Part shown: positions 1,848 through 54,187 of the stretch, in pieces
Layout: every line of letters starts with the position of its first letter
Numbering within the stretch: the stretch's first letter is position 1
From: a virus
Length of the DNA stretch: 64,000 nt
Virus record (IMG/VR): IMGVR_UViG_3300035696_000035
Coordinates: 1 to 64,000 of that record
Strand: one strand, 5' to 3'
Translations under genes and position numbers: made by a program
The notes under the pieces: generated by a model
What the model saw: the letters and a program-made list of their open reading frames with translations, nothing else
Told to the model about the DNA's origin: nothing
Database searches by the model: none

Positions 1848-2102
1848 TCACCCTGGATCTCTCAGCTCGCCCTCCCAGACCCAGCCGTACTTCTGGTCGC
1901 ACAGCACCAGCACCATGTGGTCCCCGAAGGCGGGTCCCGGCTTCGTCGCCAGCACCAGGGCCACGGTGTCGTCTTTCAGCATCCCGACGATGTCTCCCCG
2001 GTCGCTGCCGTCCCCCGGCAGCCGCCACATCCAGGTGATGTGGTCCCCGCCCGAGCTCGCTGTCTCGCTGGACTTCGTCAGGGCTAGGTCTCCCGGTCTC
2101 AC
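1848..2102 (-). CDS. family-A small beta-rich protein (PGDLV/GW paralog)
   Basis: MRPGDLALT.. N-terminus, VALVLA and YGWVWEGEL C-terminal signature shared with >20 paralogs. Confidence 0.5.
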   Translation of the reverse strand: MRPGDLALTKSSETASSGGDHITWMWRLPGDGSDRGDIVGMLKDDTVALVLATKPGPAFGDHMVLVLCDQKYGWVWEGELRDPG

Positions 2103-2332
2103 GGCGCTAGCCTGAACTGTTCCTTCTCCCGCCAGCCGAAGTACACCCCGCCGTCGCCCTTCGGCACCATGACGAACACGCTGGTCTCGTTGACTGCTAG
2201 CACCAGGGCGGGCTGGTCGTGCCGCAGGTTCGTCACCGACTTGCTGGTGGTGCTCCAGACCTCGGGCTCGTCGAACAGGGTCAGGAAGGAGTGGTTCTCC
2301 CTGGTCAGCACCGTGTCCCCGGGCTTGATCAC
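2099..2332 (-). CDS. family-A paralog
   Basis: GTG start (VIKPGDTVLT) overlapping TGA of upstream gene (GTGA); ALVLAV..YFGW motif. Confidence 0.5.
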   Translation of the reverse strand: MIKPGDTVLTRENHSFLTLFDEPEVWSTTSKSVTNLRHDQPALVLAVNETSVFVMVPKGDGGVYFGWREKEQFRLAP

Positions 2333-2598
2333 GCTTCTTCGATCAGGTGCTGGCCCACCCAGCCAAACCTGCCCCCGCACAGGACCAGCGCCCAGTCCCA
2401 CTGCGGGTGGGTGCCCAGCAGCAGGCACACGTCCTGCATCCTGATCTGGCCCACCAGCTTGGGATCGTGTTCTTCGTCCCGGATGTGGTTGACGTCGGGC
2501 TGGTACGGAGCCGGCACGTTGCTGAGGCCGATGCTGCCGCCCTCGTCGAGCAGGGTCCTGCCCTGGGCGCTGAGCTTCACCAGGTCACCGGGCTTCAT
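2329..2598 (-). CDS. family-A paralog
   Basis: Trimmed to MKPGDLVKL (ATGA overlap with 2595..2795 gene); ALVLC..FGWVG motif. Confidence 0.5.
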   Translation of the reverse strand: MKPGDLVKLSAQGRTLLDEGGSIGLSNVPAPYQPDVNHIRDEEHDPKLVGQIRMQDVCLLLGTHPQWDWALVLCGGRFGWVGQHLIEEA

Positions 2599-2795
2599 GC
2601 CTGTCCCTTGGGCCTGGGTTGGGTGCTGATGGCGAAGCCGAAGAGTTCCTCTTCTTCTTTGGCGAGCTCCCGTAGCCGGCGGTTGCGTGCCCACCAGCAC
2701 TGGACGTGGCACACCTCGACCGGCACCCCGTCCCGGATGGTGATCATCGAGGTCTCCCCCGTGTCGATGGGTTCACCGCAGACCGGGCAGCTCAC
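2595..2795 (-). CDS. family-C zinc-ribbon protein
   Basis: 66 aa; CPVCGEPID..x..VCHVQCWW four-ligand pattern shared with 2792..3037 and 4094..4429. Confidence 0.5.
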   Translation of the reverse strand: MSCPVCGEPIDTGETSMITIRDGVPVEVCHVQCWWARNRRLRELAKEEEELFGFAISTQPRPKGQA

Positions 2796-3037
2796 CGCAG
2801 CACCTCGCCCGAACCCGAGAACACTGTCGGCTCGCTGCCGATGGAGTGACGAGCGTTGCGTTGCCAGCTTGCGGTGCCCGAGCCCCCGTCGCTCTCGCCC
2901 CTCAACTCAGCAACGACCGCCGTCAACCGGGCACACTCGGCCTTCCACCAGCACAGCTCGTGGTACCAGTGCCCGTCGAGGATGTGCGGCGCCTCAGGTG
3001 TGATGTCTTCGTCACAGAAGGTGCAGACCGGGACCAT
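2792..3037 (-). CDS. family-C zinc-ribbon protein
   Basis: Trimmed to MVPVCTFCDEDI..HWYHELCWW; N-terminal Ser/Arg-rich extension of the track ORF discarded. Confidence 0.45.
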   Translation of the reverse strand: MVPVCTFCDEDITPEAPHILDGHWYHELCWWKAECARLTAVVAELRGESDGGSGTASWQRNARHSIGSEPTVFSGSGEVLR

Positions 3038-3041
3038 GCTG

Positions 3042-3293
3042 TCATGGTACCACCTCAAAGTATGCTGTACCCTGCCAACCCAACTGGTTGCGGCACAACA
3101 CCAAGAGCAACCGCGACTTCCAAGAGAGCTGGACCTCAGAGGTAGCGATGACGATGCCCACGTCATCGGGCTCGAACGACCCGCAGGTTCGCTTGCCCTC
3201 TGTGGTGTCGAGCTGCCACTCGCGGACGTTCCACAGGGAGACTGAGGCGTTGCCGGTGTTCTTCAGCCTCACCAGGTCCCCCGGCTTGATCAC
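3042..3293 (-). CDS. family-A paralog
   Basis: GTG start (VIKPGDLVRLKN) in GTGA overlap with 3290..3565; GIVIAT..LGWQG motif. Confidence 0.5.
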   Translation of the reverse strand: MIKPGDLVRLKNTGNASVSLWNVREWQLDTTEGKRTCGSFEPDDVGIVIATSEVQLSWKSRLLLVLCRNQLGWQGTAYFEVVP

Positions 3294-3565
3294 TCGACCA
3301 CCTCGAACTGGGTCGTCTCCCGCCAGCCCATCTTGGAGTCCCCGTCCCCCGTCGCCACCAGCACCAGGCACTCAGTCGCTGATGAGACCTCGTCGTATGG
3401 GATCTCGTTGACGGCCAACACCAAGCCCACGTCTTCCGGTTGCATCTGGTAGACCTCAGGGATCGAGGTGCCGCCTCCGACAGTGAGGGCGACGGGTCCC
3501 GGCTTGGCGAACAGGGTGACGAAGCCATCGGGCTGCACGATCTTGACGGTGTCTCCCGGCTTCAT
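3290..3565 (-). CDS. family-A paralog
   Basis: MKPGDTVKIVQP..GLVLAV..MGWRETTQFEVV; ATGA-coupled to neighbours. Confidence 0.55.
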   Translation of the reverse strand: MKPGDTVKIVQPDGFVTLFAKPGPVALTVGGGTSIPEVYQMQPEDVGLVLAVNEIPYDEVSSATECLVLVATGDGDSKMGWRETTQFEVVE

Positions 3566-3882
3566 GGCACCAGCTCGAACATGCGGGTCTCGTTCCAGCC
3601 GAACTGGTCACCGAACAGCACCATCACCTGGTCACCCAGGCCCTCGAGGCCCTTCTGTTCGGGCCCGATGGCGATGTGCCGGGCTAGCACCAGTCCCACC
3701 CGGTTCCACATCGCTTTGCCAGTGATGCCGCTGCCTCCCTGGTCCTTCCACAGGGTGACGTTGGTCGTCTTGGGTCCGGTGTCCTCTTGGCGTGGCCACA
3801 CCAGCGCGCCCGGCACGATCCGCATGTCGGGTTGCCACACCTGGCGCTCGCCCGCCATCGCTGAGGACTGTTCGACGCTCAC
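3562..3882 (-). CDS. family-A paralog (divergent N-terminus)
   Basis: IVPGALVWP..GLVLA..FGWNETRMFELVP, ending nearly identical to 3290..3565 paralog. Confidence 0.5.
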   Translation of the reverse strand: MSVEQSSAMAGERQVWQPDMRIVPGALVWPRQEDTGPKTTNVTLWKDQGGSGITGKAMWNRVGLVLARHIAIGPEQKGLEGLGDQVMVLFGDQFGWNETRMFELVP

Positions 3883-4094
3883 GGCAGCCCACGCACCCGT
3901 TCCAGCTGCCGGCGTGCATGGCGCTGCTCGGCTCGTTTCTTCTGCAAACGTTCTTGGATCCCCTGCCTACGGTTGAGGATCCAGTGTTGGAACTCCGAAG
4001 CCATGATGGGCGCGTCTTGCCGCTGCCCCTGCCCACGGAAGACCCACAGAATGGTCCATGCAGTGATGAGGGTGGCAACCACAGCTCGGCTCAT
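3879..4094 (-). CDS. small single-pass membrane protein
   Basis: Trimmed to MSRAVVATLITAWTILWVF (TM helix) followed by basic coiled region; TGATG coupling. Confidence 0.4.
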   Translation of the reverse strand: MSRAVVATLITAWTILWVFRGQGQRQDAPIMASEFQHWILNRRQGIQERLQKKRAEQRHARRQLERVRGLP

Positions 4095-4429
4095 CAGCGC
4101 CTCCTGAGGCGGTCCAGCACCGCGTGGGCCAGGGACTTCAGCAACGGCGGCTGCCGCAGCTGTTCCAGGTCGTGCTCGGCGTCCCACCGCTTGTGGCGTT
4201 CCTTCCAGACCTCGTCCGAGAGCAGCTTGTTCTCGCCCTCGAGGATGTGGTTGTCGTCCTGGAGTGAGCTTAGCTCTTCTTCGAGCTCATCGGCACGTTC
4301 GCTACGCTTCCGCAGGTAGCACAGCTCGTGAGCGAGCTCGCGGCCCAAGCGGGACGTCTGGATCATCCGGGTCCGGTCCTTGACCTTGTCGATCGGCCCG
4401 CTGCAGATGGGACACTTTTCGTGTTGCAT
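4094..4429 (-). CDS. family-C zinc-ribbon protein with coiled-coil tail
   Basis: Trimmed to MQHEKCPICSGPIDKV..LAHELCY after GGGGGA RBS-like stretch. Confidence 0.45.
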   Translation of the reverse strand: MQHEKCPICSGPIDKVKDRTRMIQTSRLGRELAHELCYLRKRSERADELEEELSSLQDDNHILEGENKLLSDEVWKERHKRWDAEHDLEQLRQPPLLKSLAHAVLDRLRRR

Positions 4430-4637
4430 CAGTCCCCCGTCAAGCGTGGTGCTTGCCACCCGCTGTGAAATACCCGTGACGGAAGCCCGTCGATGACCCC
4501 TCGCGGTGCCCGCGGTCGTAACCGACCCGGTACGCAACGAGCCACGTCACCGCTCCCGTCACGAACACCGACAGGAGTGTCACCCAGGTGCTGTCGTCCA
4601 TGTGTCCACCTTAACTCGCGCGTGGTACGTTTGCACC

Positions 4638-4901
4638 ATGAAGCCGGGTGACCTCGTCAAACGCAAGGACAAGTGGCGGGACACCAACGTGAACTCGGGT
4701 CGCATCTTCCTGATGCGGGACGCCGAGAAGTTCAACGAGGCGGTCTGCGAGTTCCACTACGACAGGCTCGCTCTGGTCGTCGCCGTCAAACACGTGATGT
4801 GGTCCGACTTCATCGGCGGGGACTTTGCCCTGCTCCTCTACGAGGGGACGTACGGCTGGACGCTGGTCGGCGAGCTGGAGGCTGTCAGCCCGGGCTCGTG
4901 A
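4638..4901 (+). CDS. family-A paralog
   Basis: MKPGDLVKRKDKW..LALVVAV..YGWTLVGELE. Confidence 0.5.
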   Translation: MKPGDLVKRKDKWRDTNVNSGRIFLMRDAEKFNEAVCEFHYDRLALVVAVKHVMWSDFIGGDFALLLYEGTYGWTLVGELEAVSPGS

Positions 4902-7686: not shown

Positions 7687-8101
7687 GCTCACACGGCTGG
7701 GCCGAGCGCTCCGTCGCGAGCTCGAGCCACTGGTCAAACAACACCCAGACGAGTTCGGCTTTCCCAACTACATGGGTGCCTGCGGTGTCGCGGCCTACGC
7801 CATGTGCAAGCTGCTGCGTCGCCTGGGAAGCCAACCCAAGCTCGTCATGTCGGGCGGCCCGTTCCCGGGCAGCAGGCACTGTTGGACCGAGGTGGACGGC
7901 TTCATTGTGGACCTGACAGCGACACAATTCGGCTACACCAAGCCAGTCCAGGTCGTCACCCGCCGGAGTGAATGGCACACGCCATGGCTTTGCGAAGGTC
8001 GAGATGCACTGGAGCGCTTGAAGACCTGGGATCTCCAGAACCCGCTGAAGCACCGTGAGGCCATCGATGCCGCGGTGAGCCGGGTCCTCACACCTCGCTG
8101 A
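7661..8101 (+). CDS. putative transglutaminase-like cysteine peptidase
   Basis: Cys (GACGVAAYAMC), His (RHCWTEVDGF), Asp (IVDLTATQ) spaced like transglutaminase-like triad; start uncertain. Confidence 0.35.
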   Translation: MGSPPRSTELTRLGRALRRELEPLVKQHPDEFGFPNYMGACGVAAYAMCKLLRRLGSQPKLVMSGGPFPGSRHCWTEVDGFIVDLTATQFGYTKPVQVVTRRSEWHTPWLCEGRDALERLKTWDLQNPLKHREAIDAAVSRVLTPR

Positions 8102-8369
8102 AGCACAGCAAGCTGTTCCATCCCAAGCGAGTGCCGAACAACACCAACGCTTCCAGGTGCTTGCCACCCGCTGCCCACCCGTCAGCGGCGTCGGTCTCAA
8201 CCTCGACCACAGCAATGAGCAAACCGACCTCGTCGAGCTCCACAGTGCCGACCGTCGGGTTGTCAGGAGTGAAGGGCTCCGGTCGCTTCAACAGCACGAC
8301 CCGGTTGCCTCCCGTCTCAGTGCCTCTGTCGACAGGGTCGACCTTGATGAGGCTGCCGGGCAGCATCAC
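8088..8369 (-). CDS. family-A paralog
   Basis: MMLPGSLIKV..GLLIAVV..LGWNSLL. Confidence 0.45.
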   Translation of the reverse strand: MMLPGSLIKVDPVDRGTETGGNRVVLLKRPEPFTPDNPTVGTVELDEVGLLIAVVEVETDAADGWAAGGKHLEALVLFGTRLGWNSLLCFSEV

Positions 8370-8659
8370 TCGCTGCGGCGGTGCGCCAGCTCCGCGATGA
8401 AGTGACCTAGCTTGGCATACTCACAGCCCAGGGCGACCAGGTCACGTGGAGTGCACCAGCCTGCACCGATGTTGCGGGTCTTGCGGCCCTTGATGTCCTG
8501 GAAGAGTCCGTAGATGGGCTTGATCTTGAGCATCTCGGCCCCGACCTCCTCACGGTCCAAGACGTCGATGACCACGTAGAGGACCCCGCCTGCGATGCCC
8601 TGGTACTCGCAGGTGCAGACGTCGCCCTTCTGCCACACGTGTTTCTGGTCGTCGCTCAT
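8366..8659 (-). CDS. family-B protein (LG..Y..LGHFI.E.A tail)
   Basis: C-terminal LVALGCEYAKLGHFIAELAHRRSE shared with 8656..9003, 23869..24159, 24152..24499. Confidence 0.5.
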   Translation of the reverse strand: MSDDQKHVWQKGDVCTCEYQGIAGGVLYVVIDVLDREEVGAEMLKIKPIYGLFQDIKGRKTRNIGAGWCTPRDLVALGCEYAKLGHFIAELAHRRSE

Positions 8660-9003
8660 GCTTCCATGCCGAGGCGACGTGCCTCGTCCCGTATGAAGTT
8701 GCCGAGGTTCATGTACTCAGTGCCCAAGTCGACCAACGACAACGGAGTGCACTGGCGTGCCATGACGATTACCTTGCGGTTGTGGACGCCGAACAGCGGC
8801 GTCGCTTGTTCAAGTCGTAGACGAACAAAGCGTTGTCGGGAACCCGGGCTGGCTGTGTCTTTGGCGGGCAACACTTCAACAACGCGACTGATGATGCCAA
8901 TCCAGCGCTTGCACAGGTCGCCGACACGCCATTCGTTTTCTTCCTTCCGGCCGTTGAGTGCCATCGGATGCTCCAGGTCTCGATTGTCTGCCGTGCTGGT
9001 CAT
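8656..9003 (-). CDS. family-B protein
   Basis: C-terminal LSLVDLGTEYMNLGNFIRDEARRLGMEA. Confidence 0.5.
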   Translation of the reverse strand: MTSTADNRDLEHPMALNGRKEENEWRVGDLCKRWIGIISRVVEVLPAKDTASPGSRQRFVRLRLEQATPLFGVHNRKVIVMARQCTPLSLVDLGTEYMNLGNFIRDEARRLGMEA

Positions 9004-10002: not shown

Positions 10003-10211
10003 TGATCTCGTTGCGAGGTGGCATCGCCGCCACAGTCTGGTACGTGGCCGTCCTCCTGTCGATCAGGTTCGGTCAGGTCCAACCCGATCCGGTTCCCGCC
10101 ATCCAGCTCAACGCTCCCGCAGTCGATGCCAGCGTGCCTCCGCCCCCGCCTCCGCCGGAACCAGCGGGTGACTGTGGCGAGTGGGACGACTCAGAGGAGT
10201 GCGAGACATGA
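10003..10211 (+). CDS. small membrane protein with poly-Pro acidic tail
   Basis: GTG start in GTGA overlap; IAATVWYVAVLLSI TM helix then PPPPPPPEP..DCGEWDDSEECE. Confidence 0.3.
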
Positions 10212-10498
10212 AAGCGAGCCCAGGCATGATGTTCATGGTGAAGAGCAACGCACCCGTCCACGATGACCCGGCATACAAGGAGACCCAGATGCGGTCCCAC
10301 TACAACCGGGAGCTGGGGCGCGTGGTCGAGACCACCAACGAGATCATCCGTGAGCTGTTCCGTACCGAGGACGGTGACCTGGCCCTGGTGCTGGCGACGG
10401 GCATGAAGGGTGACGGCCGCGAAGGCTACTCCTACTGCCTGCTGCCGGGCCAGCGACTCGGCTGGATCCACAACAACGACCTGATGCAAGCTGACTGA
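10208..10498 (+). CDS. family-A paralog
   Basis: Trimmed to MKASPGMMFMV (ATGA overlap); LALVLAT..LGWIHNNDL. Confidence 0.45.
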   Translation: MKASPGMMFMVKSNAPVHDDPAYKETQMRSHYNRELGRVVETTNEIIRELFRTEDGDLALVLATGMKGDGREGYSYCLLPGQRLGWIHNNDLMQAD

Positions 10499-11672: not shown

Positions 11673-11942
11673 GTGGGACGCCGGGCCATAAGGACAGGTG
11701 ACCTGGTCGTCTCTCGCCACGAGTCGGTCCAGCTCTGGCGGCTGCCTGAAGGCAACCTCGACTCCAGCGACTGCGTCTCACACAACTGCAAGATGGGCCT
11801 CGTTATCGGCCTGCAACAGGTGACGTGGTACGCCGACAAGTTCAACACCCACCCGAAGACCAAGCTGATGGTGATGGTGTTCGATTCGACCGTTCAGAAG
11901 TATGGTTGGGTCGAGGTCAACAAGATCAAGCGGGTGGACTGA
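11673..11942 (+). CDS. family-A paralog
   Basis: RTGDLVVSRH..MGLVIGL..YGWVEVNKI. Confidence 0.5.
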   Translation: MGRRAIRTGDLVVSRHESVQLWRLPEGNLDSSDCVSHNCKMGLVIGLQQVTWYADKFNTHPKTKLMVMVFDSTVQKYGWVEVNKIKRVD

Positions 11943-13019: not shown

Positions 13020-16000
13020 ATGGTCAAGTGCAATATGTGTCGCGGCTCGGGTTGGTACCAAGCCAACGCGAACCAACGCACCAAGTGCCCCTACTGCCAG
13101 GGTCGAGGCAGCATCGACGAGAAGGACCCAGCGCAGCAGCGTAGGGCTCGTGAGCTCGACGACTTCTACACCGGGATGAAGACCTTCGGTGATCCCACCA
13201 CCACGTTTCCTGGCGGGTACAACCCCAGCGAAGTAGAGCGGATCCTGAACGAGAAGGCGATCGAGTCCAAGGCAACGATGCGGAAGCCCGCTCCTTCGCC
13301 CGCGATGCCGATCCCGGGTCCGAGCCCGATCGACGTGGCTCTGTCTGAGGCCCGGCGCCGCAAGCAGGAGCTGTACGGCACTCGCCCAGAACCAACGATT
13401 TCGCCGACGACGCCGGTGGCACCTGAATCTAGTGTAAAGCGTCCGAAAAAAGAAGTAGGGTCTGGTCACACAACGGCGCAAGCCAAAACTCGGAGCAACG
13501 ACAACATGAGCGAAGAAGATATCCGCGGACAGCGTCGAGTGCAGGACATGATCCTGGCTCCCAACGAGTTCGCATACATCAGCGACGAGACCAAGGGCGA
13601 AGTCAACGTCTTCGTCGGTCCCAACAAGCAGAGCCTGGCCGGCACCGACCAGCTCGTCAAGTTCGACCTCAAGTCGAAGCGGTTCCAGTCGGTCACTCGG
13701 GAGCAGGGCATCCAGCTCTTCCAGACCGCACCGGAAGGGTGGTACATCGTCCTGAAGAACCCGGCCGACGGTGACAAGCACCCGACGGGCCAGGGCAAGC
13801 TCAGCACGCCAAACCTCCGGGTCGGCAAGAAGGTCAACATCCCGGGTCCGGCATCGTTCCCGCTGTGGCCTGGCCAGATGGCGAAGGTCGTCCAGGGACA
13901 CTCGCTGAAGTCGAACGAGTACCTGCTCTGCCGGGTCTACGACGAGGAAGCCGCGAAGGCCAACTACGGCAAGGCGGTCGTCAAGACGCAGGGTGAGACC
14001 TCTGCAACGCCTGCTGCCGAGGGCGAGTCCGCCAAGCGGCCGCACCGCAGCGTCGAGGCCTCGGGTCGTGCTTCCAGCGACATCCCGACGGCCAACGACC
14101 TCACGATGGGCAAGCTCTTCGTGGTCCGAGGCACCGAGGTCTCCTTCTACATCCCGCCGACCGGCATCGAGGTCGTCGCCGAGAAGGTGAATGGCGAAGA
14201 GCGCATGGTCCGTGAGGCCTGCTCGCTCGAGCGTCTCGAGTACTGCTTGCTCCTCGACCAGAACGGCAACAAGCGCTACGTCATCGGCCCGGACGTCGTG
14301 TTCCCCCGCCCGACCGAGAAGTTCGTCGAGGCTCCCATCAAGTCGAACCCGGACAAGGTGAAGGCGAAGAAGTTCCGCGCCCAGGAGCTGACCCCGACGA
14401 GCGGCATCCACATCCGTGTCATCGCGGACTACAAGGAGGCCGACGGCACTCAGCGCAAGGCTGGCGATGAGCTCTTCATCACCGGCAACGAGCAGCCGGT
14501 GTACTTCCCCCGCGAGGAGCACGCCATCATCAAGTACGGCGAGCAGGACGTCCACTACGGGATCGCGATCCCGCCTGGCGAGGCTCGTTACATCCTCAAC
14601 CGCCTCACCGGCGAAGCGAGCCTGGTCGTCGGTCCGAAGATCTTCCTCCCGGATCCCCGGACGCAGGTCATCCTCCAGCGCGCCCTTCCCCTCGACCTCT
14701 GCAGCTTGCTCTACCCGGGCAACAACGAGGCTCTCGAGGTCAACGCGGCTCGCCTCGGCGTCGAAGACGTCGACTTCATGGGTGCTGGCGGGGCCAACGC
14801 GGCCTTCCTCAACAGCAACTACGTCCGCAGCGAGACGGAGAACGAGGCCTACGGTGCCGTGGCAGCAGCCGCGACCCCCGATGTCGGCCGCGGTCGCATC
14901 CTGATCAAGGCGGCGAGCAAGGCTCTGCCGGGCGATGCCTTCGACCGCAAGGCGAAGTTCACCGCACCGCGCTCGGTCATCCTCAACACCAAGTACGACG
15001 GCGCCGTCGCCGTGACCCTCTGGACCGGGTTCGCAATGCTCCTCGTTCGCAAGAGCGGCGAGCGCCGGGTCATCCAGGGACCGGGCACCTTCATGCTCGA
15101 GTACGACGAGAGCCCGCAGGTTCTGTCGCTCTCGACGGGCAAGCCCAAGAGCACCGACAACATCCTCCGCACGGTGTACCTGCAGGTCGCCAACAACATG
15201 GTCAGCGACGTCGTCGAGGTCGAGACCAAGGACTTCTGCCGGATCAAGGTGAAGGTGTCGTACCGCGTCAACTTCGAGGGCGACAGCGACTCGTGGTTCA
15301 ACGTCGACAACTACGTCAAGTTCCTCTGCGACGCGATGCGGTCTCGCATCCGGTCCGCAGTGCAGAAGCTCGGTGTCGAGGAGTTCTACTCCAACCACAC
15401 GCCGATCCTGCGTGACATCATCCTGGGTGCCAAGCACAAGGACCAGGAGCGCCTCGGCACCACGTTCGCCGAGAACGGCATGCGGATCTACGACGCCGAG
15501 GTCCTCGGCATCGAGATGACCAACACCGACGTCGAAAAGATGTTGGTCGCTGCACAGCGGTCGGTCATCCAGAACACCCTCGTCCTGGCCGAAGAGCGGC
15601 GCAAGCTGGAGTTCGTCAAGGAGACAGAGGAGCTGAAGCGGCAGACGGAGCTGGCCCGGGCGGAAACGACCCGAGCGACCCTCGAGCTGCAGCAGGTCAA
15701 CGCCAAGCGCAAGCTGGAGCTCGACCTGACCCTGATCGCCAACAACGCCAAGCAGCAGGCCGACCAGCTCGCTGCGGAAGCGGCTGCGGAAGCAGCACGT
15801 GCGGCGAACAACATGGCCCGTGAGCAGGCGGCAGCCGAAGTGGCAGCCCTCGAGCTCCAGACGACCGAGGCCCAGCGCGCCGCAGAGCGAGAGCACCTGG
15901 CGAAGACCCAGGCCATCGAGCTCGAGAAGCTCCGGGCACAGGTCCAGGCCACGGTCGACAAGGCCAAGTCCATCGAACCGCAGTTCGTCGCGGCCCTCCA

Positions 16001-16196
16001 GGCCTTCGGCGACAAGGCACTCGTCGAGAAGCTGTCGGAGGCCATGGCTCCGCTGGCGATCATCGGCGGTGGCAAGAAGGGCGTCGCCGAGATCTTCAAC
16101 GACCTGCTGAAGGGCACCGTCCTAGGCAACACCCTGGGCACCCTCGCGGCAGGCGCCGAGAAGTCGAACGGCGCGGCCAAGACGGCACGAGCCTGA
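13020..16196 (+). CDS. major vault protein (MVP) homolog with N-terminal DnaJ-type CxxCxGxG zinc finger
   Basis: 1058 aa; repeated MVP-repeat pattern (NEFAYISDETKGEVNVFVGP; RYVIGPDVVFP; SLVVGPKIFLP); shoulder region VLSLSTGKPKS..TKDFCRIKVKVSYRVNF..VDNYVKFLCDAMRSRIRSAV aligns by eye to MVP [48 protein letters not shown]; long C-terminal Ala/Glu/Lys/Gln coiled coil = cap-helix; N-terminal CNMCRGSG..CPYCQGRG. Confidence 0.85.
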   Translation: MVKCNMCRGSGWYQANANQRTKCPYCQGRGSIDEKDPAQQRRARELDDFYTGMKTFGDPTTTFPGGYNPSEVERILNEKAIESKATMRKPAPSPAMPIPGPSPIDVALSEARRRKQELYGTRPEPTISPTTPVAPESSVKRPKKEVGSGHTTAQAKTRSNDNMSEEDIRGQRRVQDMILAPNEFAYISDETKGEVNVFVGPNKQSLAGTDQLVKFDLKSKRFQSVTREQGIQLFQTAPEGWYIVLKNPADGDKHPTGQGKLSTPNLRVGKKVNIPGPASFPLWPGQMAKVVQGHSLKSNEYLLCRVYDEEAAKANYGKAVVKTQGETSATPAAEGESAKRPHRSVEASGRASSDIPTANDLTMGKLFVVRGTEVSFYIPPTGIEVVAEKVNGEERMVREACSLERLEYCLLLDQNGNKRYVIGPDVVFPRPTEKFVEAPIKSNPDKVKAKKFRAQELTPTSGIHIRVIADYKEADGTQRKAGDELFITGNEQPVYFPREEHAIIKYGEQDVHYGIAIPPGEARYILNRLTGEASLVVGPKIFLPDPRTQVILQRALPLDLCSLLYPGNNEALEVNAARLGVEDVDFMGAGGANAAFLNSNYVRSETENEAYGAVAAAATPDVGRGRILIKAASKALPGDAFDRKAKFTAPRSVILNTKYDGAVAVTLWTGFAMLLVRKSGERRVIQGPGTFMLEYDESPQVLSLSTGKPKSTDNILRTVYLQVANNMVSDVVEVETKDFCRIKVKVSYRVNFEGDSDSWFNVDNYVKFLCDAMRSRIRSAVQKLGVEEFYSNHTPILRDIILGAKHKDQERLGTTFAENGMRIYDAEVLGIEMTNTDVEKMLVAAQRSVIQNTLVLAEERRKLEFVKETEELKRQTELARAETTRATLELQQVNAKRKLELDLTLIANNAKQQADQLAAEAAAEAARAANNMAREQAAAEVAALELQTTEAQRAAEREHLAKTQAIELEKLRAQVQATVDKAKSIEPQFVAALQAFGDKALVEKLSEAMAPLAIIGGGKKGVAEIFNDLLKGTVLGNTLGTLAAGAEKSNGAAKTARA

Positions 16197-31575: not shown

Positions 31576-31845
31576 TCAGTGACGCCAGGTCACTCGGCCC
31601 TTGGTAACGTCATAGGGTGACACCTCGATCGTTACGTTGTCTCCTGGTAGCAGCCGGATCCTGTTGATCCGCAGCTTGCCTGACAGCGTACAGACGACGG
31701 TGTTGCCCATTGTCGTCTTCACCCGGAACAGCGTTCCGGGCATTGCTTCCTCAACGCGGCCCTCGAACTCGAGGCGGTCTTCCCGTACCTCCTGCTCGGT
31801 TGTAGACCCTTGCGCCTGGTTGACCCATCTCCGTCTCTTGCTCAT
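31576..31845 (-). CDS. infA: translation initiation factor IF-1 (S1-like OB fold) with about 24-aa N-terminal extension
   Basis: EFEGRVEEAMPGTLFRVKTTMGNTVVCTLSGKLRINRIRLLPGDNVTIEVSPYDVTKGRVTWR aligns along full length to bacterial IF1 ([50 protein letters not shown]). Confidence 0.75.
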   Translation of the reverse strand: MSKRRRWVNQAQGSTTEQEVREDRLEFEGRVEEAMPGTLFRVKTTMGNTVVCTLSGKLRINRIRLLPGDNVTIEVSPYDVTKGRVTWRH

Positions 31846-32108: not shown

Positions 32109-32498
32109 ATGGCGAAACAGCGGAAACATGTGTACGTTCCCATCCCGTGTAAGGGATGTAGACAAGAGTTCACTCCCAAGGCTTCGTGCCAGAAGTTCTG
32201 CGTCATATGCATCCCCAACAAGAAGGCTCAGGGGCGTCGCCAGATCTACGGCCTCACGCAGCCTGAGTTTGAGAGGATGTTGCAAGAGCAAGACGGGAAG
32301 TGCTTCTTTTGCAGACGCGATTTCGCCGCAATGTTCAACGGCAAGTTTTCTCCGATCTGCGTTGACCATGACCATCAGACGAACCGCGTACGAGGTTTGC
32401 TGTGTCGGAAGTGTAACATGCTCTTGGGCTGGTTGGAGCTGTGCCCTCCCGGCATCCTGCGAAAGATCGAGAGCTACCTCAGTCATCCGTGTATCTGA
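32109..32498 (+). CDS. endonuclease VII-like (HNH-type) nuclease
   Basis: VDHDHQTNRVRGLLCRKCNMLLG core; CxxC pairs at N-terminus. Confidence 0.7.
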   Translation: MAKQRKHVYVPIPCKGCRQEFTPKASCQKFCVICIPNKKAQGRRQIYGLTQPEFERMLQEQDGKCFFCRRDFAAMFNGKFSPICVDHDHQTNRVRGLLCRKCNMLLGWLELCPPGILRKIESYLSHPCI

Positions 32499-39594: not shown

Positions 39595-40031
39595 CCCTTG
39601 GCCGGATGGAGTTGGGCCAGTTCGCGGAGGACATCGACGGCCTGCTGCTCGAACTGGCCGACGATCTGTGCTGCCACGTACGCCTTTCGGTACAGCCACA
39701 GCGCCCTGATCAGCTGGGTCCCGATGACGATCGCGAGAGCGAACCAGCCGCTGGCACCGCAGAGCCAGGCAACCAGCGACAGCACCGACGCGCTGATGAC
39801 GCCGCCCGTTGCAGTGCCCCAGGCGTTGCGTCGCAACAGGTGGGAGTGGTAGACGTCACGGTAGAGTGCCAAGGCCAGGCCGAAGCTCGCCGCTTCCTCC
39901 TCTTTCACCTGGTGCCAGTCGACCTTGCTGGCCTCGTCAGTCATCAGGGTGTCAACGTCAACGTCGACATCCGCAGACTGGATCGTCACTTCACTGCTGT
40001 CCATTGTCTTGCTCCTTGCTGGGCTCGTCAT
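39591..40031 (-). CDS. membrane protein
   Basis: Two predicted TM helices (VISASVLSLVAWLCGASGWFALAIVIG). Confidence 0.4.
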   Translation of the reverse strand: MTSPARSKTMDSSEVTIQSADVDVDVDTLMTDEASKVDWHQVKEEEAASFGLALALYRDVYHSHLLRRNAWGTATGGVISASVLSLVAWLCGASGWFALAIVIGTQLIRALWLYRKAYVAAQIVGQFEQQAVDVLRELAQLHPAKG

Positions 40032-41631
40032 AGACGACCGCGTCGAGTGACAGGAACGTCGTTGCCACGCTGGCGGCGTGCTTGAGGGCTGACCGGGTCA
40101 CCTTGACCGGGTCGATGACTCCAGCCTGGACCAGGTCCTCGTACTCCCCCGTTGCCGCGTTGTACCCGCGGCTGTCGGAGCGCTCACCCCGTTCGAGCTC
40201 AGCAACGACGACGTCAGCGCTGGTGCCTGCGTTCTGGACGATGCGCTGGAGGGGCGACAAGCACGCCTTGAACACAGCCGTCGCTCCATGGACCTCGTCG
40301 GGGTCGACACCCTCGGCCTTGCCGACGGCGCTGCGGACCTTGGTCACTGCGTTGAACAACGCCATGCCACCGCCCGGGACCAGGCCCTCTTCGGTTGCTG
40401 CCTTCGTTGCGTTGAGAGCGTCCTCGATGCGGAACTTCCGCTCCTGCATCTCGATCTCGGTGGCACCACCGACGCGGATCACTGCGACGCCGTTGGCCAG
40501 CTTCGCTGCCCGCATCCGGAGCTTCGTCAGCTCGTCTTGAGCCAGGGTCACGTCAGTGGCCTGGACACGTAGCTGTTCCACGTGCTGGGCGACCTTCTCC
40601 TTGGTTGCGCCCCCAGCGACGATGGTCGTCACCTTGGCGTCCGACGTCAGCTTCCTGACCTGGCCCAGGTGGGTGCCCTGGATGTCCTTCAGGCTTAGTC
40701 CCGTCGCGCTGGAGATGAGCGTGGCCCCTGTCAGCACGCAGATGTCCTGCAGCAGCTCCTGACGGTGCTGGCCGTAGCCCGGTGCCTTGACGGCGACGAC
40801 GGGCAGCTTGCCCTGGGCCCGGTTGATGACGAGGCCCGTCATGGCGTCACCCTCGAAGTCTTCAGCGATGATCAGCAGCGGCCGCCGTGCCTGGGCCACC
40901 TTCTCGAGGGCAGGCACGATGTCAGCGAAGGAGGACAGCTTCTTGTCGGTGACCAGCACCAGAGCTTCCTCGTAGACAGCCCGCATCCGCTCCGGGTCGG
41001 TGATGAAGTACGGGCTGACGTAGCCCCTGTCGATCTGCATGCCCTCGACGACCTCCATCGAGGTCGACATGCCCTTGGCATCTTCGACGGTGATGATCCC
41101 GTCACGTCCCACCCGCTCCATGGCATCGGCGATCAGCTTGCCGATGACAGCATCACCGTTCGCTGAGATGGTGCCGACCTGGGCGACTTCCTCTGAGGTC
41201 TGGACAGCCTTGGCCGATCGCTTGAGCTCCTCGAGGACCAACTCCACAGTGGTGTTGATGCCCCTGCACACTGCCAGCGGGCTCATCCCCGCCTCGACCA
41301 GCTTCATGCCCTCGCGGACCAGCGCCTGGGTCAGGACGCTGGCGGTCGTGGTGCCGTCACCAGCGACGTCGTTGGTCTGGCTGGCTGCCTCACGGACCAG
41401 GTCTGCCCCCATCCTTTCGACTGGATCACGGAGCTTGATCGACTTGGACACCGTCACCCCGTCCTTGGTGACCAAGGGTGCCTGCCCCTGTCGCTGGATC
41501 AGCACCGTCTTGCCCTTCGGGCCGAGGGTGCATCCGATGGCGTCAGAAGCCTTGTCGAGGCCTGACAGGAGCTGCTTGCGAGCTTCGCTGCTGAAGATGA
41601 TCTGTGTCGTGGATTCGCCGGGCATGTTCAT
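39991..41631 (-). CDS. groEL: chaperonin GroEL (Cpn60)
   Basis: 546 aa; TLGPKGKTV, GDGTTTA, VEGMQIDRGY, AVKAPGYG, GGG(MALFNAV) hallmark motifs; full-length colinear with GroEL. Confidence 0.9.
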   Translation of the reverse strand: MNMPGESTTQIIFSSEARKQLLSGLDKASDAIGCTLGPKGKTVLIQRQGQAPLVTKDGVTVSKSIKLRDPVERMGADLVREAASQTNDVAGDGTTTASVLTQALVREGMKLVEAGMSPLAVCRGINTTVELVLEELKRSAKAVQTSEEVAQVGTISANGDAVIGKLIADAMERVGRDGIITVEDAKGMSTSMEVVEGMQIDRGYVSPYFITDPERMRAVYEEALVLVTDKKLSSFADIVPALEKVAQARRPLLIIAEDFEGDAMTGLVINRAQGKLPVVAVKAPGYGQHRQELLQDICVLTGATLISSATGLSLKDIQGTHLGQVRKLTSDAKVTTIVAGGATKEKVAQHVEQLRVQATDVTLAQDELTKLRMRAAKLANGVAVIRVGGATEIEMQERKFRIEDALNATKAATEEGLVPGGGMALFNAVTKVRSAVGKAEGVDPDEVHGATAVFKACLSPLQRIVQNAGTSADVVVAELERGERSDSRGYNAATGEYEDLVQAGVIDPVKVTRSALKHAASVATTFLSLDAVVYDEPSKEQDNGQQ

Positions 41632-42267: not shown

Positions 42268-43806
42268 TCAGCTCCCGGAGTCCTCCTCCCCCTCCTCCGG
42301 ATCTAAAGGGTCGTCGTCTTCGACGTCGTCCTCCTCTCCTAGCGGAAGTCCCATCTCACGTTGGAAGGTGTCGATGGCATCCTTCAGCTGGTCGGGGGTG
42401 ATCTCGCTCTCATCTCCCTGGTCTGCGGGTGGGGAAGCTTCGCCTGGGACCGTGGTATTTACCGCGGCGTTTACCTTTGCGGCCCGACCGATGAGCGACC
42501 ACATCCGGGCCATGCCGTCGTCGTCCTCGTCACGGTACTTGCTGAGGCCCTTCACCCGCTTCGCCAGCTCCTTGACGCTCTCGGCGGCTTCCTCAGGGCT
42601 GAGGTAGGTCCGTCTGACGACGTACTCATGGATGAAGGCGATGGGCCAGTCCTTGACGTAGTCGTAGCCGTCGTTGTACTCGCCCAGTACGTGGCGGACC
42701 ACTTCCTCGTCCAGGGTGTCGACCAGCTCAATCTCATCGATGCGGCCTGGACGTTGCAGGGCATCGTCCAGCTTCCGTCGGTTGTTGACGGTGATGATGA
42801 CCAGCTTCACCTTCTCTTGGAAGTACTCCAACGTCTCCAGCAGCTGTGCCTGGTGGTGGGTGCGATCGAAGTCATCCAAGATGACCGCATCAGGTTGGAA
42901 GATGTTCAGCGCCTCGAACAGGGTGGAGTTGTCGAGCTGGCCGAGGTCAGCGATGCGGATGCGGAACGACCTGAACCCCATCAGCTCGACGATCGTCCGT
43001 GCCATCGTCGACTTGCCGGTGCCGGGTGGCCCGTAGAACATCACGGTGCGGGGCACCCCCGCGGCGATGGGCTTCTTGAGGTACCGAGCGTACTCGGTGG
43101 CCCGCTTGGACTGCTTGCTCTCGAAGGCATCGTCCTGCTCGAAGATGACCCGAGCCTCGTTCTCCTTGAGGATGAGGCGGTTGTTCTTCCGCATCACCAA
43201 GCTCTTGCCCTGGAACTGTTCCCACAGGAGCTGCTTGATGTAGTCCTTGGCCTCCTGCATCCGCTCGGTCTCGACGTAGATGTTGTCGACCGTCTGCAGG
43301 CGTCCGGTGTAGGTCCAGCCGACCTTGAGGCCATTGGGCAGGGTGCAGACCCGGATGAAGGTGTTGTCTTCCGATGTCTTGATCCTCTCGTATGGGAACT
43401 TCTGGAGCACGTGGAGCAGGGTCTGGGTGAAGTCCTGGCTGTAGGGCTCCGTCCATTCGTCTCCGGCGAAGTAGTCCTCGCTGTAGACCTCGACGTCTTC
43501 GATCATGGTCTTGCCCATGGCGAAGGCTGCCTTGCCCGCCGTCCACCATGAGGGCTTGTCCAAGAACGGCGTCGCCGCGTTGAACAGCTCGGTGCCCAGG
43601 GCAAACGCGCGCTTGACCTTGCTGATGCTGAGGAAGCGCCTGATCTCTTCGATCAGGGGCATGTCCTTCACCACCTTCAGCAGGTCCTCGTCGTCGGGAG
43701 CCATCAGCCCGCCCTTCTTTCCCATGTCTTCCTCTTTGTCTTCGGTGACTTCGACGTCAAGAGCATCAATGAACTCGTCTGCTACGTCTTCCCACTTGGT
43801 CGTCAT
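42268..43806 (-). CDS. AAA+ ATPase (paralog of 18622..19902) with acidic C-terminal tail
   Basis: Trimmed to MTTKWEDVADEF (ATGA overlap with 43803..44498); Walker A GPPGTGKST, Walker B VILDDFD, LQRPGRIDEI; tail EEDDVEDDDPLDPEEGEEDSGS. Confidence 0.75.
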   Translation of the reverse strand: MTTKWEDVADEFIDALDVEVTEDKEEDMGKKGGLMAPDDEDLLKVVKDMPLIEEIRRFLSISKVKRAFALGTELFNAATPFLDKPSWWTAGKAAFAMGKTMIEDVEVYSEDYFAGDEWTEPYSQDFTQTLLHVLQKFPYERIKTSEDNTFIRVCTLPNGLKVGWTYTGRLQTVDNIYVETERMQEAKDYIKQLLWEQFQGKSLVMRKNNRLILKENEARVIFEQDDAFESKQSKRATEYARYLKKPIAAGVPRTVMFYGPPGTGKSTMARTIVELMGFRSFRIRIADLGQLDNSTLFEALNIFQPDAVILDDFDRTHHQAQLLETLEYFQEKVKLVIITVNNRRKLDDALQRPGRIDEIELVDTLDEEVVRHVLGEYNDGYDYVKDWPIAFIHEYVVRRTYLSPEEAAESVKELAKRVKGLSKYRDEDDDGMARMWSLIGRAAKVNAAVNTTVPGEASPPADQGDESEITPDQLKDAIDTFQREMGLPLGEEDDVEDDDPLDPEEGEEDSGS

Positions 43807-44498
43807 GCACACAGGTCCTTCGCCAGTTTTCCCTCTTTCTCCAACGTCATGTTCGCATTGAGCTCCCAGTGGAGTGGGATGAGCTTCAACCTCTTGGCGG
43901 CATGGACCAACGTCCGAGCATGGTAGTACAACACTCGGGCTTCTGGCATCACGCCCGGCGGTCGCTTGATCTTGAGGAACCGCTTCTTTGCGTCTTTGAC
44001 GATCCACCACGGACCGGTGTGCTCCTCTCGCTGGTAGCCTTCTTGCAGGTACTGGTCGACAGCAACACGGAGCTCCTCAGGTACCCGCTTCCAGGTGTCC
44101 TCGTTCTTGACGCAGAGGACGATGTAGTTGATGTAGTCCTTCCACGCCTTGATCTGACGTTCCCATTCCCGTTCGGGGTCAGCGTAGAAGCCAACGCATG
44201 ACTCAGTGAAGACCTTGGGCCCACAGACGATGCCGATCTCGATCTCCTCCGGGAAGGGCTGCCCGCCAGCGTCTACGTTGCCAACCTTGGCCGAGTCCTC
44301 GTGCGACTCGTTCTTGAGGTGCAGCACGTGCCTGATGGGTCGACCACAGCAAGCACACTTGCTCTTGCCGTAGTGGAAACCGCAGATGATCCACGAGCCC
44401 GCAGCAATGAGGGGCTTGAAGTTCTTGCCGTAGGCTTTGACGTGCCTATCGTCACTGGCCCGCTCGATGACGTCAGTCTGTTGGGTCTGGTATCGCAC
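43803..44498 (-). CDS. hypothetical Cys-rich protein
   Basis: 231-aa ORF; CGFHYGKSKCACCG cluster. Confidence 0.4.
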   Translation of the reverse strand: MRYQTQQTDVIERASDDRHVKAYGKNFKPLIAAGSWIICGFHYGKSKCACCGRPIRHVLHLKNESHEDSAKVGNVDAGGQPFPEEIEIGIVCGPKVFTESCVGFYADPEREWERQIKAWKDYINYIVLCVKNEDTWKRVPEELRVAVDQYLQEGYQREEHTGPWWIVKDAKKRFLKIKRPPGVMPEARVLYYHARTLVHAAKRLKLIPLHWELNANMTLEKEGKLAKDLCA

Positions 44499-45503: not shown

Positions 45504-46088
45504 TCACCTGTCGTCGTCTTCTTCGTCCTCATCCTCGTCGTCGTCGCTCTCCTCGTACTCATCGTTGGGAGTGAAGACGGGAGCGTCAGCTCCCGGGTGG
45601 AGCTGGATCTCGCACCAGACCAGCTGCCCGTCGGAGATGATGAAGTGAGAGGTCTTGTAGTTGTTGATGTCTTCACCGTCGTCATTGACCTCCCCGTAGG
45701 TGACGCTTCCCTCGGCCTGGCCGCGGAGGAGCGGGACCACCTTGTTGACGAAGATCGGGAAGAAGGTGTTGGCCGCGGTCTCGTCGTAGCCGCTGTCATC
45801 GTCGTGCCAGTCGAGGCAGTTGATCTCCAGGCCGGCCACCGACTTCTTGACAACCTTGGCACCGCACTCTCGACAGAACTTGGCGTTACCGTAGCTGGTG
45901 GTGCCGCAGGCACACTTGACCTTCTCTTTGGTCTGCGAGTTGATCTTGTCCTCCAGCTCACGGAGGAAGCAGTTCTCGGGAAGGTCCCCGTCGTACTTGT
46001 CGAGGAGCTTCTTGGCATCGCGCGGGTCGATGTTGAGGGTTGAACGCTCAGGCCTCAGGAACGTGACGCTGTCGATTCGAGTGCTCAT
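45504..46088 (-). CDS. hypothetical zinc-ribbon protein with poly-acidic tail
   Basis: CACG..x..CRECG ribbon; C-terminal EESDDDEDEDEEDDD. Confidence 0.4.
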   Translation of the reverse strand: MSTRIDSVTFLRPERSTLNIDPRDAKKLLDKYDGDLPENCFLRELEDKINSQTKEKVKCACGTTSYGNAKFCRECGAKVVKKSVAGLEINCLDWHDDDSGYDETAANTFFPIFVNKVVPLLRGQAEGSVTYGEVNDDGEDINNYKTSHFIISDGQLVWCEIQLHPGADAPVFTPNDEYEESDDDEDEDEEDDDR

Positions 46089-46999
46089 ATCGGTGCCTCC
46101 ATCAATCTCTTGCCCAAGTCCTTCAAGAACTCGGGCCCGTACTTCAGGTTGCCTGTTGCCTCGAGGTCTCGCTCGAGGAAGTCAGGCAGGACTTCGTCCT
46201 GGCACCGTGCCGAGGCGATGCCCCAGGCGATCGCGGCGACGCTGTCAGTGTCCCCGCCCCACTCGATGACCTGTCGCATGATGCCCATCAGGGTCGGTTG
46301 GGTCGTCAACAAGGTATGCACCGCCCATGCAGTGTTCATGCCCACATCCCACGGTGAGTGCTTGGCTTTGCCGGTCACCGGGCCCACCCAGGGCTCACGG
46401 AAGCGCTCGAAGGCCGGGAGCTGGTTGGCCAACCACCCGGTCATGCTGGGGAAGTCTCGACGGTCATAGAGGGCAAAGTGTGACATCAGGGCCACAGCCA
46501 CCGAGGCAGTCACGCCCTCGTAGGTCGCATGGGTGGTGCCCGCCTGGCGCATCGCCATCATCTTGACCCACTCCGGGTCGGCGATGGTGCCGAGTGGCAC
46601 GCTCCGCATCGCCGCACCGTTCTTGGTCGAGTCGGGCTTCAGGGTCAGCCGCAGCTCGTCGCCGGACTTGACTGACTCGAGGATCGCCTGGAAGTTGCGG
46701 GAGTATCCATCACGGGGATCACGCTTGAAGGCGTTGAACCAAGCCTCGATGAAGTCCTCGTGCTTAGCGCTCCTACCCTTGGCCAACAGCACTTCGGTCA
46801 ACGCGATCGACATCTGGGTGTCGTCGGTGTACATGCCGGGCCGGAGCTTAGTGTGGGTCGGGTGCTGCAGGTACTGTTCGAATCGGCGAGCCCACTCGTA
46901 GAGGCCTGGGTTCTCTGCTTCCTTGACGTACTCGACGCACGCGGCGTAGGCGTCGCCCTGCGCGATACGGAGCAGCATCAAGTCGTTGCGGTGTCTCAC
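46085..46999 (-). CDS. ADP-ribosylglycohydrolase family protein (DraG/ARH-like)
   Basis: N-terminal GDAYAA, YTDDTQMS, C-terminal GGDTDSVAAIAWGIASA motifs. Confidence 0.7.
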   Translation of the reverse strand: MRHRNDLMLLRIAQGDAYAACVEYVKEAENPGLYEWARRFEQYLQHPTHTKLRPGMYTDDTQMSIALTEVLLAKGRSAKHEDFIEAWFNAFKRDPRDGYSRNFQAILESVKSGDELRLTLKPDSTKNGAAMRSVPLGTIADPEWVKMMAMRQAGTTHATYEGVTASVAVALMSHFALYDRRDFPSMTGWLANQLPAFERFREPWVGPVTGKAKHSPWDVGMNTAWAVHTLLTTQPTLMGIMRQVIEWGGDTDSVAAIAWGIASARCQDEVLPDFLERDLEATGNLKYGPEFLKDLGKRLMEAPI

Positions 47000-52401: not shown

Positions 52402-52622
52402 TGGTCTTCACCGCACCCCGGGCACGTTTCGTGCTTGAGGTCTTCAGCCTTGCATTCCTCGGGAGCGCTCCATTCTTCCTGGACGCCCCACACGTGGACA
52501 TGCCGCCCGTTCTTGTCCCAGATGACGATGAGGGTGCCATCAACGACAGCGTCGACGAGCCCGTAGGATCCCGGGCGGTCCTTGTGAGCGACTAGGTCTG
52601 CCATCCCGAAAGTTTCAGACAT
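52377..52622 (-). CDS. hypothetical protein (family-A-like core, C-terminal Cys cluster)
   Basis: Trimmed to MSETFGMADLVAHK; TLIVIWD..; CPGCGEDQCWCG. Confidence 0.3.
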   Translation of the reverse strand: MSETFGMADLVAHKDRPGSYGLVDAVVDGTLIVIWDKNGRHVHVWGVQEEWSAPEECKAEDLKHETCPGCGEDQCWCGVGR

Positions 52623-53700: not shown

Positions 53701-54187
53701 GTTCAAACCAACTCTCGTCGACGGGTATGTCAGGGAACGGCCACCAAGCGGGTGCGGCCGCCCTGGGTGCCCACTTGGCGAAACGTGCTTTCTCACCGAT
53801 GTAGTACGCGCGGTACGCCTTGACGGGGTCAGCATCGCGGTACTGCTCGGGCATCGCCTGAGCAAAGGGAGTCAGCCCCAGGTCAGGCAGGTCAGGTTGT
53901 TCGAGCGAGGCGATGATGTGTTCGGTCTTGTGGACCTTGCCGTAACGACGAGTGTACTCGTTGCAGAGCTCACAAGCGTGCCGCAACAACCACTCATAGT
54001 TCGACAACGAGGCACGGACCCACTTGCCACACGGGTGGTTGACGTGAGTGTGTTTGTATCGCGTCGTCCCGGGCGGGAATGCAGTGACCAACAGTTGGGC
54101 ACTCTCCAACAGCATCTTGACCACGTGCTTGTTGCACTGGTCTCGTGCTGCCTTGAGCGGGTCCTGGTCTAGGACGAAGATGTTCAT
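53678..54187 (-). CDS. hypothetical protein
   Basis: 169-aa ORF; MNIFVLDQDPLKAARDQCNKHVVKM N-terminus. Confidence 0.45.
   Translation of the reverse strand: MNIFVLDQDPLKAARDQCNKHVVKMLLESAQLLVTAFPPGTTRYKHTHVNHPCGKWVRASLSNYEWLLRHACELCNEYTRRYGKVHKTEHIIASLEQPDLPDLGLTPFAQAMPEQYRDADPVKAYRAYYIGEKARFAKWAPRAAAPAWWPFPDIPVDESWFEQEVAGED

Follow-up and report, generated by a model that had tools for sequence, protein, structure and literature searches.

Four related genes in two overlapping pairs

The 64,000-nucleotide stretch of viral DNA analyzed here (positions 1 to 64,000 of IMG/VR record IMGVR_UViG_3300035696_000035; hereafter the window) contains four short genes, which we call B1 to B4 and which are arranged in two tandem pairs. 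Pair 1 lies on the minus strand, with B2 as its first gene (8656-9003; 115 amino acids (aa) if read from the ATG at 9003, basic, pI 9.2) and B1 as its second (8366-8659; 97 aa, pI 6.3). Pair 2 lies on the plus strand and consists of B3 (23869-24159; 96 aa, pI 9.2) followed by B4 (24152-24499; 115 aa from a GTG start, acidic, pI 5.8, with an acidic C-terminal tail). A first-pass annotation, made from the DNA letters and their open reading frames (ORFs), had grouped these four ORFs as paralogues sharing a conserved C-terminal segment, and the C-terminal strings that it quoted were all found at their positions in the four genes.

That annotation had staked its claim of paralogy on pairwise BLASTP similarity. 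Five of the six pairs proved significant (E 8e-10 to 1.6e-5), and the claim therefore stands. The B1/B2 match (E 8e-10, 28% over 100 aa) covers essentially the full length of the proteins, the B2/B4 match (E 1e-7) spans 80 aa, and the B1/B3 match (E 4e-6) is confined to the C-terminus. B2/B3 (E 7e-8) and B3/B4 (E 1.6e-5) complete the set. The pair B1/B4 gave no BLASTP match, these two copies being connected through B2. We also searched the window ORFs of at least 45 aa with three hidden Markov models (HMMs), derived from the four B sequences, from 184 family members, and from the C-terminal helix alone. Each model retrieved exactly B1 to B4, with E-values of 1e-28 to 5e-46 for the full-length models and 1e-10 to 1e-16 for the helix. 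No fifth copy was recovered among these ORFs, the next best of which scored E 0.25 or worse. By these matches, which exclude chance, the four genes are diverged paralogues of a single, previously unnamed family.

The GC content at third codon positions (GC3) of the four ORFs is of the coding type (0.68-0.86), and the ratios of nonsynonymous to synonymous divergence (dN/dS) against orthologues on other contigs (designated L001, L002 and so on) range from 0.21 to 0.57, with dS near saturation. The ratio is 0.21 for B2 (against L002), 0.57 for B1 (against L002 9835-10176), 0.21 for B3 (which is 68% identical to L001 9718-10008), and 0.26 for B4. Together, the GC3 and dN/dS values show that all four are real genes held under purifying selection. 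The start of B2 is probably the ATG at 8964, which yields a protein of 102 aa, rather than the ATG at 9003, because a GGAG lies 6 nt upstream of the former, the gene call in ENA (P0002) is likewise of 102 aa, and the orthologues are short at the N-terminus. The ATG at 9003 is not preceded by a Shine-Dalgarno-like sequence, and residues 1-25 of the long form are disordered in the AlphaFold2 (AF2) model (predicted local distance difference test, pLDDT, 48-57).

The tandem arrangement reported by the first-pass annotation was recovered in both places. The stop codon of B2 and the start codon of B1 overlap in the four nucleotides ATGA (8656-8659), and the two genes form one leftward unit with a third gene at 8088-8369, the successive stop/start overlaps being ATGA and GTGATG. 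In pair 2, the GTG start of B4 at 24152 lies 8 nt inside B3. These two genes close a head-to-tail series on the plus strand that begins with a hydrophobic 59-aa ORF (23321-23500) and continues with an endonuclease VII gene (23501-23869), with junctions TGAATG, TGATG, and the 8-nt overlap. Both B pairs are translationally coupled.

Fold, variation and distribution of the B family

Structures of B2 and B4 were modeled with AF2 from a 36-sequence alignment. The B2 model (pLDDT 83.7, predicted template modeling score, pTM, 0.67) contains strands at residues 30-32, 38-45, 61-66, 78-81, and 86-88 and a helix at residues 90-110, and the B4 model (pLDDT 84.9, pTM 0.69) contains strands at residues 6-9, 23-35, 45-57, 69-72, and 76-79 and a helix at residues 81-101. 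The B protein is accordingly modeled as one compact domain, in which a five-stranded SH3-like beta-barrel of the Tudor, chromo-barrel, or KOW kind is closed by one C-terminal helix of 21 residues. The beta-rich character ascribed earlier to the N-terminal part agrees with the five strands of both models. The "helix pair" ascribed to the C-terminus does not, since in both models this segment is one continuous 21-residue helix. Because B4, the most divergent paralogue, keeps the strand order of B2, the C-terminal element would be one helix inside the domain of the barrel. In B2 the helix comprises residues 90-110 (LVDLGTEYMNLGNFIRDEARR; 8674-8736, minus strand), as assigned by DSSP on the model and recovered by the helix-only HMM at E 1e-16. 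The same HMM places it at residues 74-94 of B1 (8378-8440, minus strand) and residues 70-90 of B3 (24076-24138, plus strand), and HMM and AF2 model together place it at residues 81-101 of B4 (24392-24454, plus strand). Foldseek searches of the models against BFVD and PDB returned nothing at E <=1e-3.

An alignment of 184 sequences defines the motifs of the family. Strand beta1 carries V-G-D-L-[VC] (G in 96% and D in 88%), beta2 carries G-[VI]-[ILV]-[YW]-[RQ]-V, beta3 carries P-[VA]-[FY], and the helix carries L-[VLI]-D-L-G-x-x-[YR]-x-x-[LF]-[GD]-N-F-I-[RK]-[DE]-E-A-[KR]-x-x-[GS]. Conserved aromatic residues occur in beta2 (Y/W, 92%), after beta3 (F/Y, 66%), and before beta1 (W/L/F). The helix admits no insertion or deletion, two landmark positions being 13 residues apart in every one of 182 sequences. 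By a rough estimate, residues that are small or hydrophobic occupy about 240 degrees of its circumference, a wider arc than a single packing face would require. The connection between beta2 and beta3, in turn, varies five-fold in length, from 11 to 62 residues.

A profile of the four B sequences matched 37 proteins in a collection of 5.8 billion. All are metagenomic and lack Pfam domains, and those that bear a name are called "hypothetical protein". They sort into four orthologous groups, OG1 to OG4, that correspond to B1 to B4. Profile comparisons between these groups establish the C-terminal segment as clearly the best conserved part, as had been claimed, with E-values of 3e-6 to 4e-21 for the helix alone. 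Profiles of the N-terminal part alone are significant only for OG1-OG2 (8e-11), OG1-OG3 (7e-8), and, weakly, OG1-OG4 (2e-4). The proposal of a variable N-terminal part on a constant C-terminal part consequently survives in one respect: the C-terminus is constant and the N-terminus more variable. Different N-terminal modules joined to a shared C-terminal module were not found, given that the N-terminal parts share motifs and profile similarity, that B2 and B4 have equal strand order, and that the helix lies within the one domain. Since the barrel motifs are common to the 184 sequences and the N-terminal profiles match, the family is better described as one domain with variable loops. The N-terminal part is one homologous barrel throughout the family, its variability residing in loops, chiefly that between beta2 and beta3.

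The groups also bear on the history of the pairs. OG1 and OG2 are mutually the closest (full-length profile E 5e-27), and a more distant phage (L004) has a single intermediate copy, P0026, which together suggest that B2 and B1 arose by tandem duplication within this lineage. The B3 and B4 groups form the most distant pair (E 2e-4), for which reason their pairing would be old.

Further variation is found beyond the helix. C-terminal tails of at least 8 aa occur in 74 of 182 members, and 62 of these 74 are acidic. At least ten tails (P0027, P0031, P0039, P0041, P0043, P0054, P0065, P0129, P0136, and P0144) carry G-[LVM]-C-[AT]-D-[IVF]-[SA]-[AGS]-R near the C-terminus. The long acidic tails of these relatives are probably disordered. 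Three other relatives (P0034, P0035, and P0063) end in a Cys/His-rich segment, 'ECTCPDWWFPP.RREKL...HHDTCK', that may bind metal.

When 1.84 billion representatives were searched exhaustively with HMMER, the family grew to 235 clusters at E <=1e-3 and 87 at E <=1e-10, the clusters being defined at 50% identity and all metagenomic. Almost all of these proteins stand alone, with lengths of 85-170 aa. Longer members are few. Five of them (P0092, P0125, P0143, P0155, and P0166) have in common an N-terminal domain of about 140 aa, which has no Pfam match and occurs neither in the window nor in the loci compared, and the extra N-terminal regions of P0127 and P0087 likewise have no match in Pfam. The B proteins themselves are cytoplasmic and about 100 aa long. 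Library searches with the four window proteins were negative throughout. Pfam-A hmmscan at E up to 10 returned no Tudor, PWWP, Chromo, or MRG/Tudor-knot model, the best PHROGs v4 hits (E 0.19 and 0.28) covered 16-28 residues with none below 1e-3, and PADLOC and NCBIfam gave no match. A B profile found nothing below E 0.68 among PDB sequences. No match was obtained in GenBank phages by megablast of 19 kb or by tblastn of B2 (E <=1), and no relative in GTDB, sampled as one genome per species and scanned with the B2-group alignment. A literature search for SH3 or Tudor paralogue families of jumbo phages gave nothing relevant. The distribution of the hits confines the B family, as far as these collections go, to high-GC jumbo phages that are uncultivated and come mostly from soil.

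Neighboring families and the phage background

The third gene of the leftward unit, at 8088-8369 (minus strand, 93 aa), belongs to a 'PGDLV' family that we call A, and its start overlaps the stop of B1 (GTGATG). By jackhmmer and HMM searches, family A comprises nine window ORFs of 84-131 aa, located at 1848-4901, 8088-8369, and 11673-11942. Common to them are an 'M.PGDLV' strand at the N-terminus and a '..GW' motif at the C-terminus; their HMM E-values range from 2e-9 to 5e-32, and none has a Pfam match. Relatives occur in L002, L004, and L009, and in L002 the orthologue of 8088-8369 (10083-10460) again follows the B2/B1 pair. The first-pass annotation had placed both B pairs directly beside family A. 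This is correct for pair 1, at 8088-8369. Pair 2 adjoins a different family, A', from which it is separated by the 59-aa ORF and the endonuclease VII gene.

The A' array upstream of pair 2 consists of five plus-strand ORFs (21164-21502, 21364-21882, 22192-22557, 22374-22967, and 23075-23296; A' HMM E 9e-10 to 9e-40), two of these calls overlapping alternatives. Further A' genes lie at L001 8702-9714, L009 8945-9646, and L011 2276-2779 and 4022-4660, and the B/A' neighborhood recurs in L001, L006, L008, L009, and L011. The gene order is A' (five copies), 59-aa ORF, endonuclease VII, B3, B4 in the window; B, A' (four copies), B in L008; B, A' (five copies), B, B in L011; and A', A', B in L006. 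The A' proteins begin with 'MS.LKTY', followed by a conserved 'APG.WV.H...G.G.V.A...VLWS..P', and members of about 200-230 aa add a stretch of 40-45 aa, 'PLVRRVFPP.FA.QL.S.QPM..P.G.IFYMDY.Y'. This stretch matches positions 2-47 of the Pfam Gp23 model above the gathering score (E 1.8e-10 to 1.6e-6) and is 55-62% identical over about 40 aa to major capsid genes of T4-like and jumbo phages. Other A' paralogues match the Gp23 model at positions 136-175 (E 2e-7) and, weakly, at 316-343. Between B and either A or A' no significant profile relationship was detected, and only the 'PGDLV' motif of the first strand aligns.

The endonuclease VII-type gene at 23501-23869 (plus strand, 122 aa; Pfam Endonuclease_7, E 2e-16) lies immediately upstream of B3, which it overlaps in TGATG. 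A second such gene, which looks paralogous to judge from its N-terminal sequence only, lies at 32109-32498 (plus strand). Neither of these genes, nor the 59-aa ORF at 23321-23500, has a counterpart at the same position in the syntenic contig L001. Because it is absent at that position in this 369-kb phage, the gene at 23501-23869 is probably a mobile insertion and would stand outside the B family, and both endonuclease genes look like free-standing homing-endonuclease insertions. The A' gene next to the first insertion (23075-23296) is truncated to 73 aa, its L001 counterpart having 202 aa, and the insertion may have caused this truncation.

The window as a whole has a GC content of 61% and about 110 mostly small genes, and no tRNA genes were found in it. 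Its segment from 13 to 35 kb is collinear with L001, an ENA contig of 369,506 bp, at 31-81% protein identity. L007, a 369,475-bp IMG/VR viral genome, has equal ORF coordinates and identical HMM scores over the stretch compared. The complete 369-kb genomes (IMGVR_UViG_3300005529_000001 and ERZ27279688 k141_1055159) are two independent assemblies. Given the collinearity, the window is part of an uncultivated soil jumbo phage that has a relative of about 370 kb. Pfam identified, besides the two endonuclease VII genes, a phage lysozyme, a 5'-3' exonuclease, a GroEL-type chaperonin (39991-41631, minus strand), an ADP-ribosylglycohydrolase (46085-46999, minus), a UDP-glucose pyrophosphorylase-type enzyme (52615-53865, minus), and two AAA ATPases (18622-19902, plus; 42268-44010, minus), which match each other in BLASTP. 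A methionine aminopeptidase is indicated at 20520-21263 (plus) by the Peptidase_M24 match of the L001 orthologue, and an IF1/eIF-1a-like protein at 31576-31845 (minus) by Pfam matches of the orthologues in L001, L009, and L011.

A protein of 1058 aa encoded at 13020-16196 (plus) carries domains of the major vault protein (MVP): MVP_shoulder (E 6.7e-29), Vault_3 (E 7.8e-10), and a Vault repeat (E 1.6e-5) that falls below the curated cut-off. It is followed by an SPFH/Band_7 protein of 640 aa (16275-18197, plus; E 1.2e-28), and this gene pair is kept in L001 (369 kb) and L009. Viral MVPs have been reported from human-gut phages in a 2023 bioRxiv preprint (10.1101/2023.11.10.566534). The protein at 13020-16196 would be an example of an MVP from a high-GC jumbo phage.

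Possible functions and comparison with known systems

We favor the reading, to which we give a probability of roughly 40%, that the B proteins serve as a scaffold for binding, lack enzymatic activity, and perhaps act in pairs. The constant part of this scaffold would consist of the barrel core and the helix, the latter conserved mainly as part of the fold and possibly also as a pairing surface. Target specificity would come from the variable beta2-beta3 hairpin, from N-terminal tails and, in many relatives, from an acidic tail ending in a conserved peptide. The coupled pairs could be heterodimers, of the basic B2 with the near-neutral B1 and of the mildly basic B3 with the acidic B4, and the candidate targets are nucleic acid or a protein of either phage or host. 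What leads us to this reading is the combination of a rigid core with a hypervariable hairpin, the coupled and conserved pairs, their charge contrast, the helix face of about 240 degrees, and the acidic tails. Pfam, PHROGs, NCBIfam, and PADLOC revealed no enzyme-like features in B1 to B4. The effector role assigned by the first-pass annotation finds no support, the proteins having no catalytic domain or motif and no match in any library. Its alternative label, "adaptor", can be kept as a reasonable, putative guess.

Several observations weigh against the binding scaffold or narrow it. The conservation of the helix may be purely structural. The charge contrast is group-wide between OG2 (pI 9.2-10) and OG4 (pI 5.2-6.6), but it is weak for B1 and OG1, in which pI ranges from 5.3 to 9.4. 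The tail motifs belong to relatives and not to the window copies, except for the short acidic tail of B4. Synteny, which had been proposed as a check, gave a divided answer: the pairs are retained in L001/L007, L002/L003, L009/L010, and L011/L012, whereas L004/L005 have a single copy, one copy is seen in the available part of L006, and the copies of L008 lie 2 kb apart. Because of the single copies (L004, L006) and the dispersed ones (L008), an obligate heterodimer is unlikely for the family as a whole.

Other explanations start from the same observations. The B barrel, resembling as it does those of KOW, PWWP, Tudor-SH3, or OapB, could bind DNA, RNA, or a transcription or translation complex, with the helix serving only as a structural cap. 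The very basic B2 group and the KOW- and PWWP-like structural matches speak for such nucleic-acid binding and the acidic B4 group speaks against it; we consider it unlikely, though the strongest of the competitors. Somewhat less probable still is a role as head-assembly or virion-associated accessory proteins, acting with the A' proteins that carry a copy of the N-arm motif of the major capsid protein. B genes do flank A' arrays in every locus examined, distant ones included, and the long A' members match Gp23 positions 2-47 and capsid genes at 55-62%. However, adjacency in collinear, related phages is a weak sign of common function, the B2/B1 pair adjoins family A and is far from A', no profile relationship of B to A or A' was detected, and B does not resemble known decoration, scaffold, or internal head proteins. 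An elaboration of the binding scaffold that borrows from this idea is a speculation to which we attach little weight. It would make the B family a phage-specific, diversifying binder scaffold, with a rigid barrel-helix core, a hypervariable beta2-beta3 hairpin, and an acidic docking-peptide tail in many members, whose multiple and possibly heterodimeric paralogues capture different host targets or phage assembly components, perhaps together with an A' that mimics the capsid N-arm.

Proteins of the CcdB/MazF/Kid superfamily have about 100 aa and consist of an SH3-like barrel followed by a C-terminal helix, and so resemble B in size and gross description. The coupled pairs would suit a toxin of this kind with the neighboring gene as its antidote. 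We found neither a structural match to CcdB or MazF nor an adjacent, unrelated antitoxin gene; this explanation is rejected as very improbable. That chance similarity or non-coding ORFs account for B1 to B4 is more remote again and can be dismissed: the small size of the ORFs is the sole point in its favor, and against it stand the BLASTP and HMM statistics, the GC3 and dN/dS values, the 235 related clusters, and the confident fold predictions.

Whatever their targets, the analysis brings together small proteins of giant soil phages, in at least 235 clusters, as a family that had lacked annotation, and supplies its fold, diagnostic motif, and orthologous subgroups. It leaves four fewer "ORFans" in this genome and provides a clean target for interaction screens. 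Taken alone, this adds incrementally to an already large set of small phage proteins with SH3-like folds. Its importance would rise only if the paired copies proved to be a specific binding system, for example in host take-over or head assembly.

Among known structures, the models come nearest to the chromo-barrel and PWWP domains of the 'Royal' superfamily (MRG15 2f5k, Eaf3 3e9g, PWWP 6kco/3pmi), with which B would share a five-stranded, strongly bent antiparallel SH3-like barrel. Sequence identity to these domains is 5-10%, and B matches no Pfam profile. Furthermore, the known representatives are eukaryotic chromatin readers with an aromatic cage, whereas the B proteins are stand-alone phage proteins with an invariant helix motif of their own. 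The KOW domains of Spt5/NusG and ribosomal proteins (4zn3, 1m1g, 2mi6, eL27) lack a conserved terminal helix, except in eL27, and B for its part has no KOW motif or PF00467 match, no NGN domain, and no ribosomal context. At 96-115 aa the B proteins stand alone, and their neighbors are other small phage ORFs. With Tudor domains (SMN, TDRD3, and the C-terminal Tudor of PcrA/UvrD) only the barrel aligns; these domains have no helix and no sequence relationship to B. The best viral Foldseek matches, DUF1653 and the T4-type Gp30.5 (BFVD), likewise have a similar barrel and are phage proteins of 60-100 aa that stand alone. These matches are at E 4e-3 or weaker, with TM-scores of 0.4-0.5 and no sequence match, and the proteins are themselves uncharacterized. 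The B family thus presents itself, on the strength of the models, as a new family, confined to phages, whose fold is of a known kind, nearest in shape to chromo-barrel, PWWP, and KOW domains, and which by sequence is a member of none of them.
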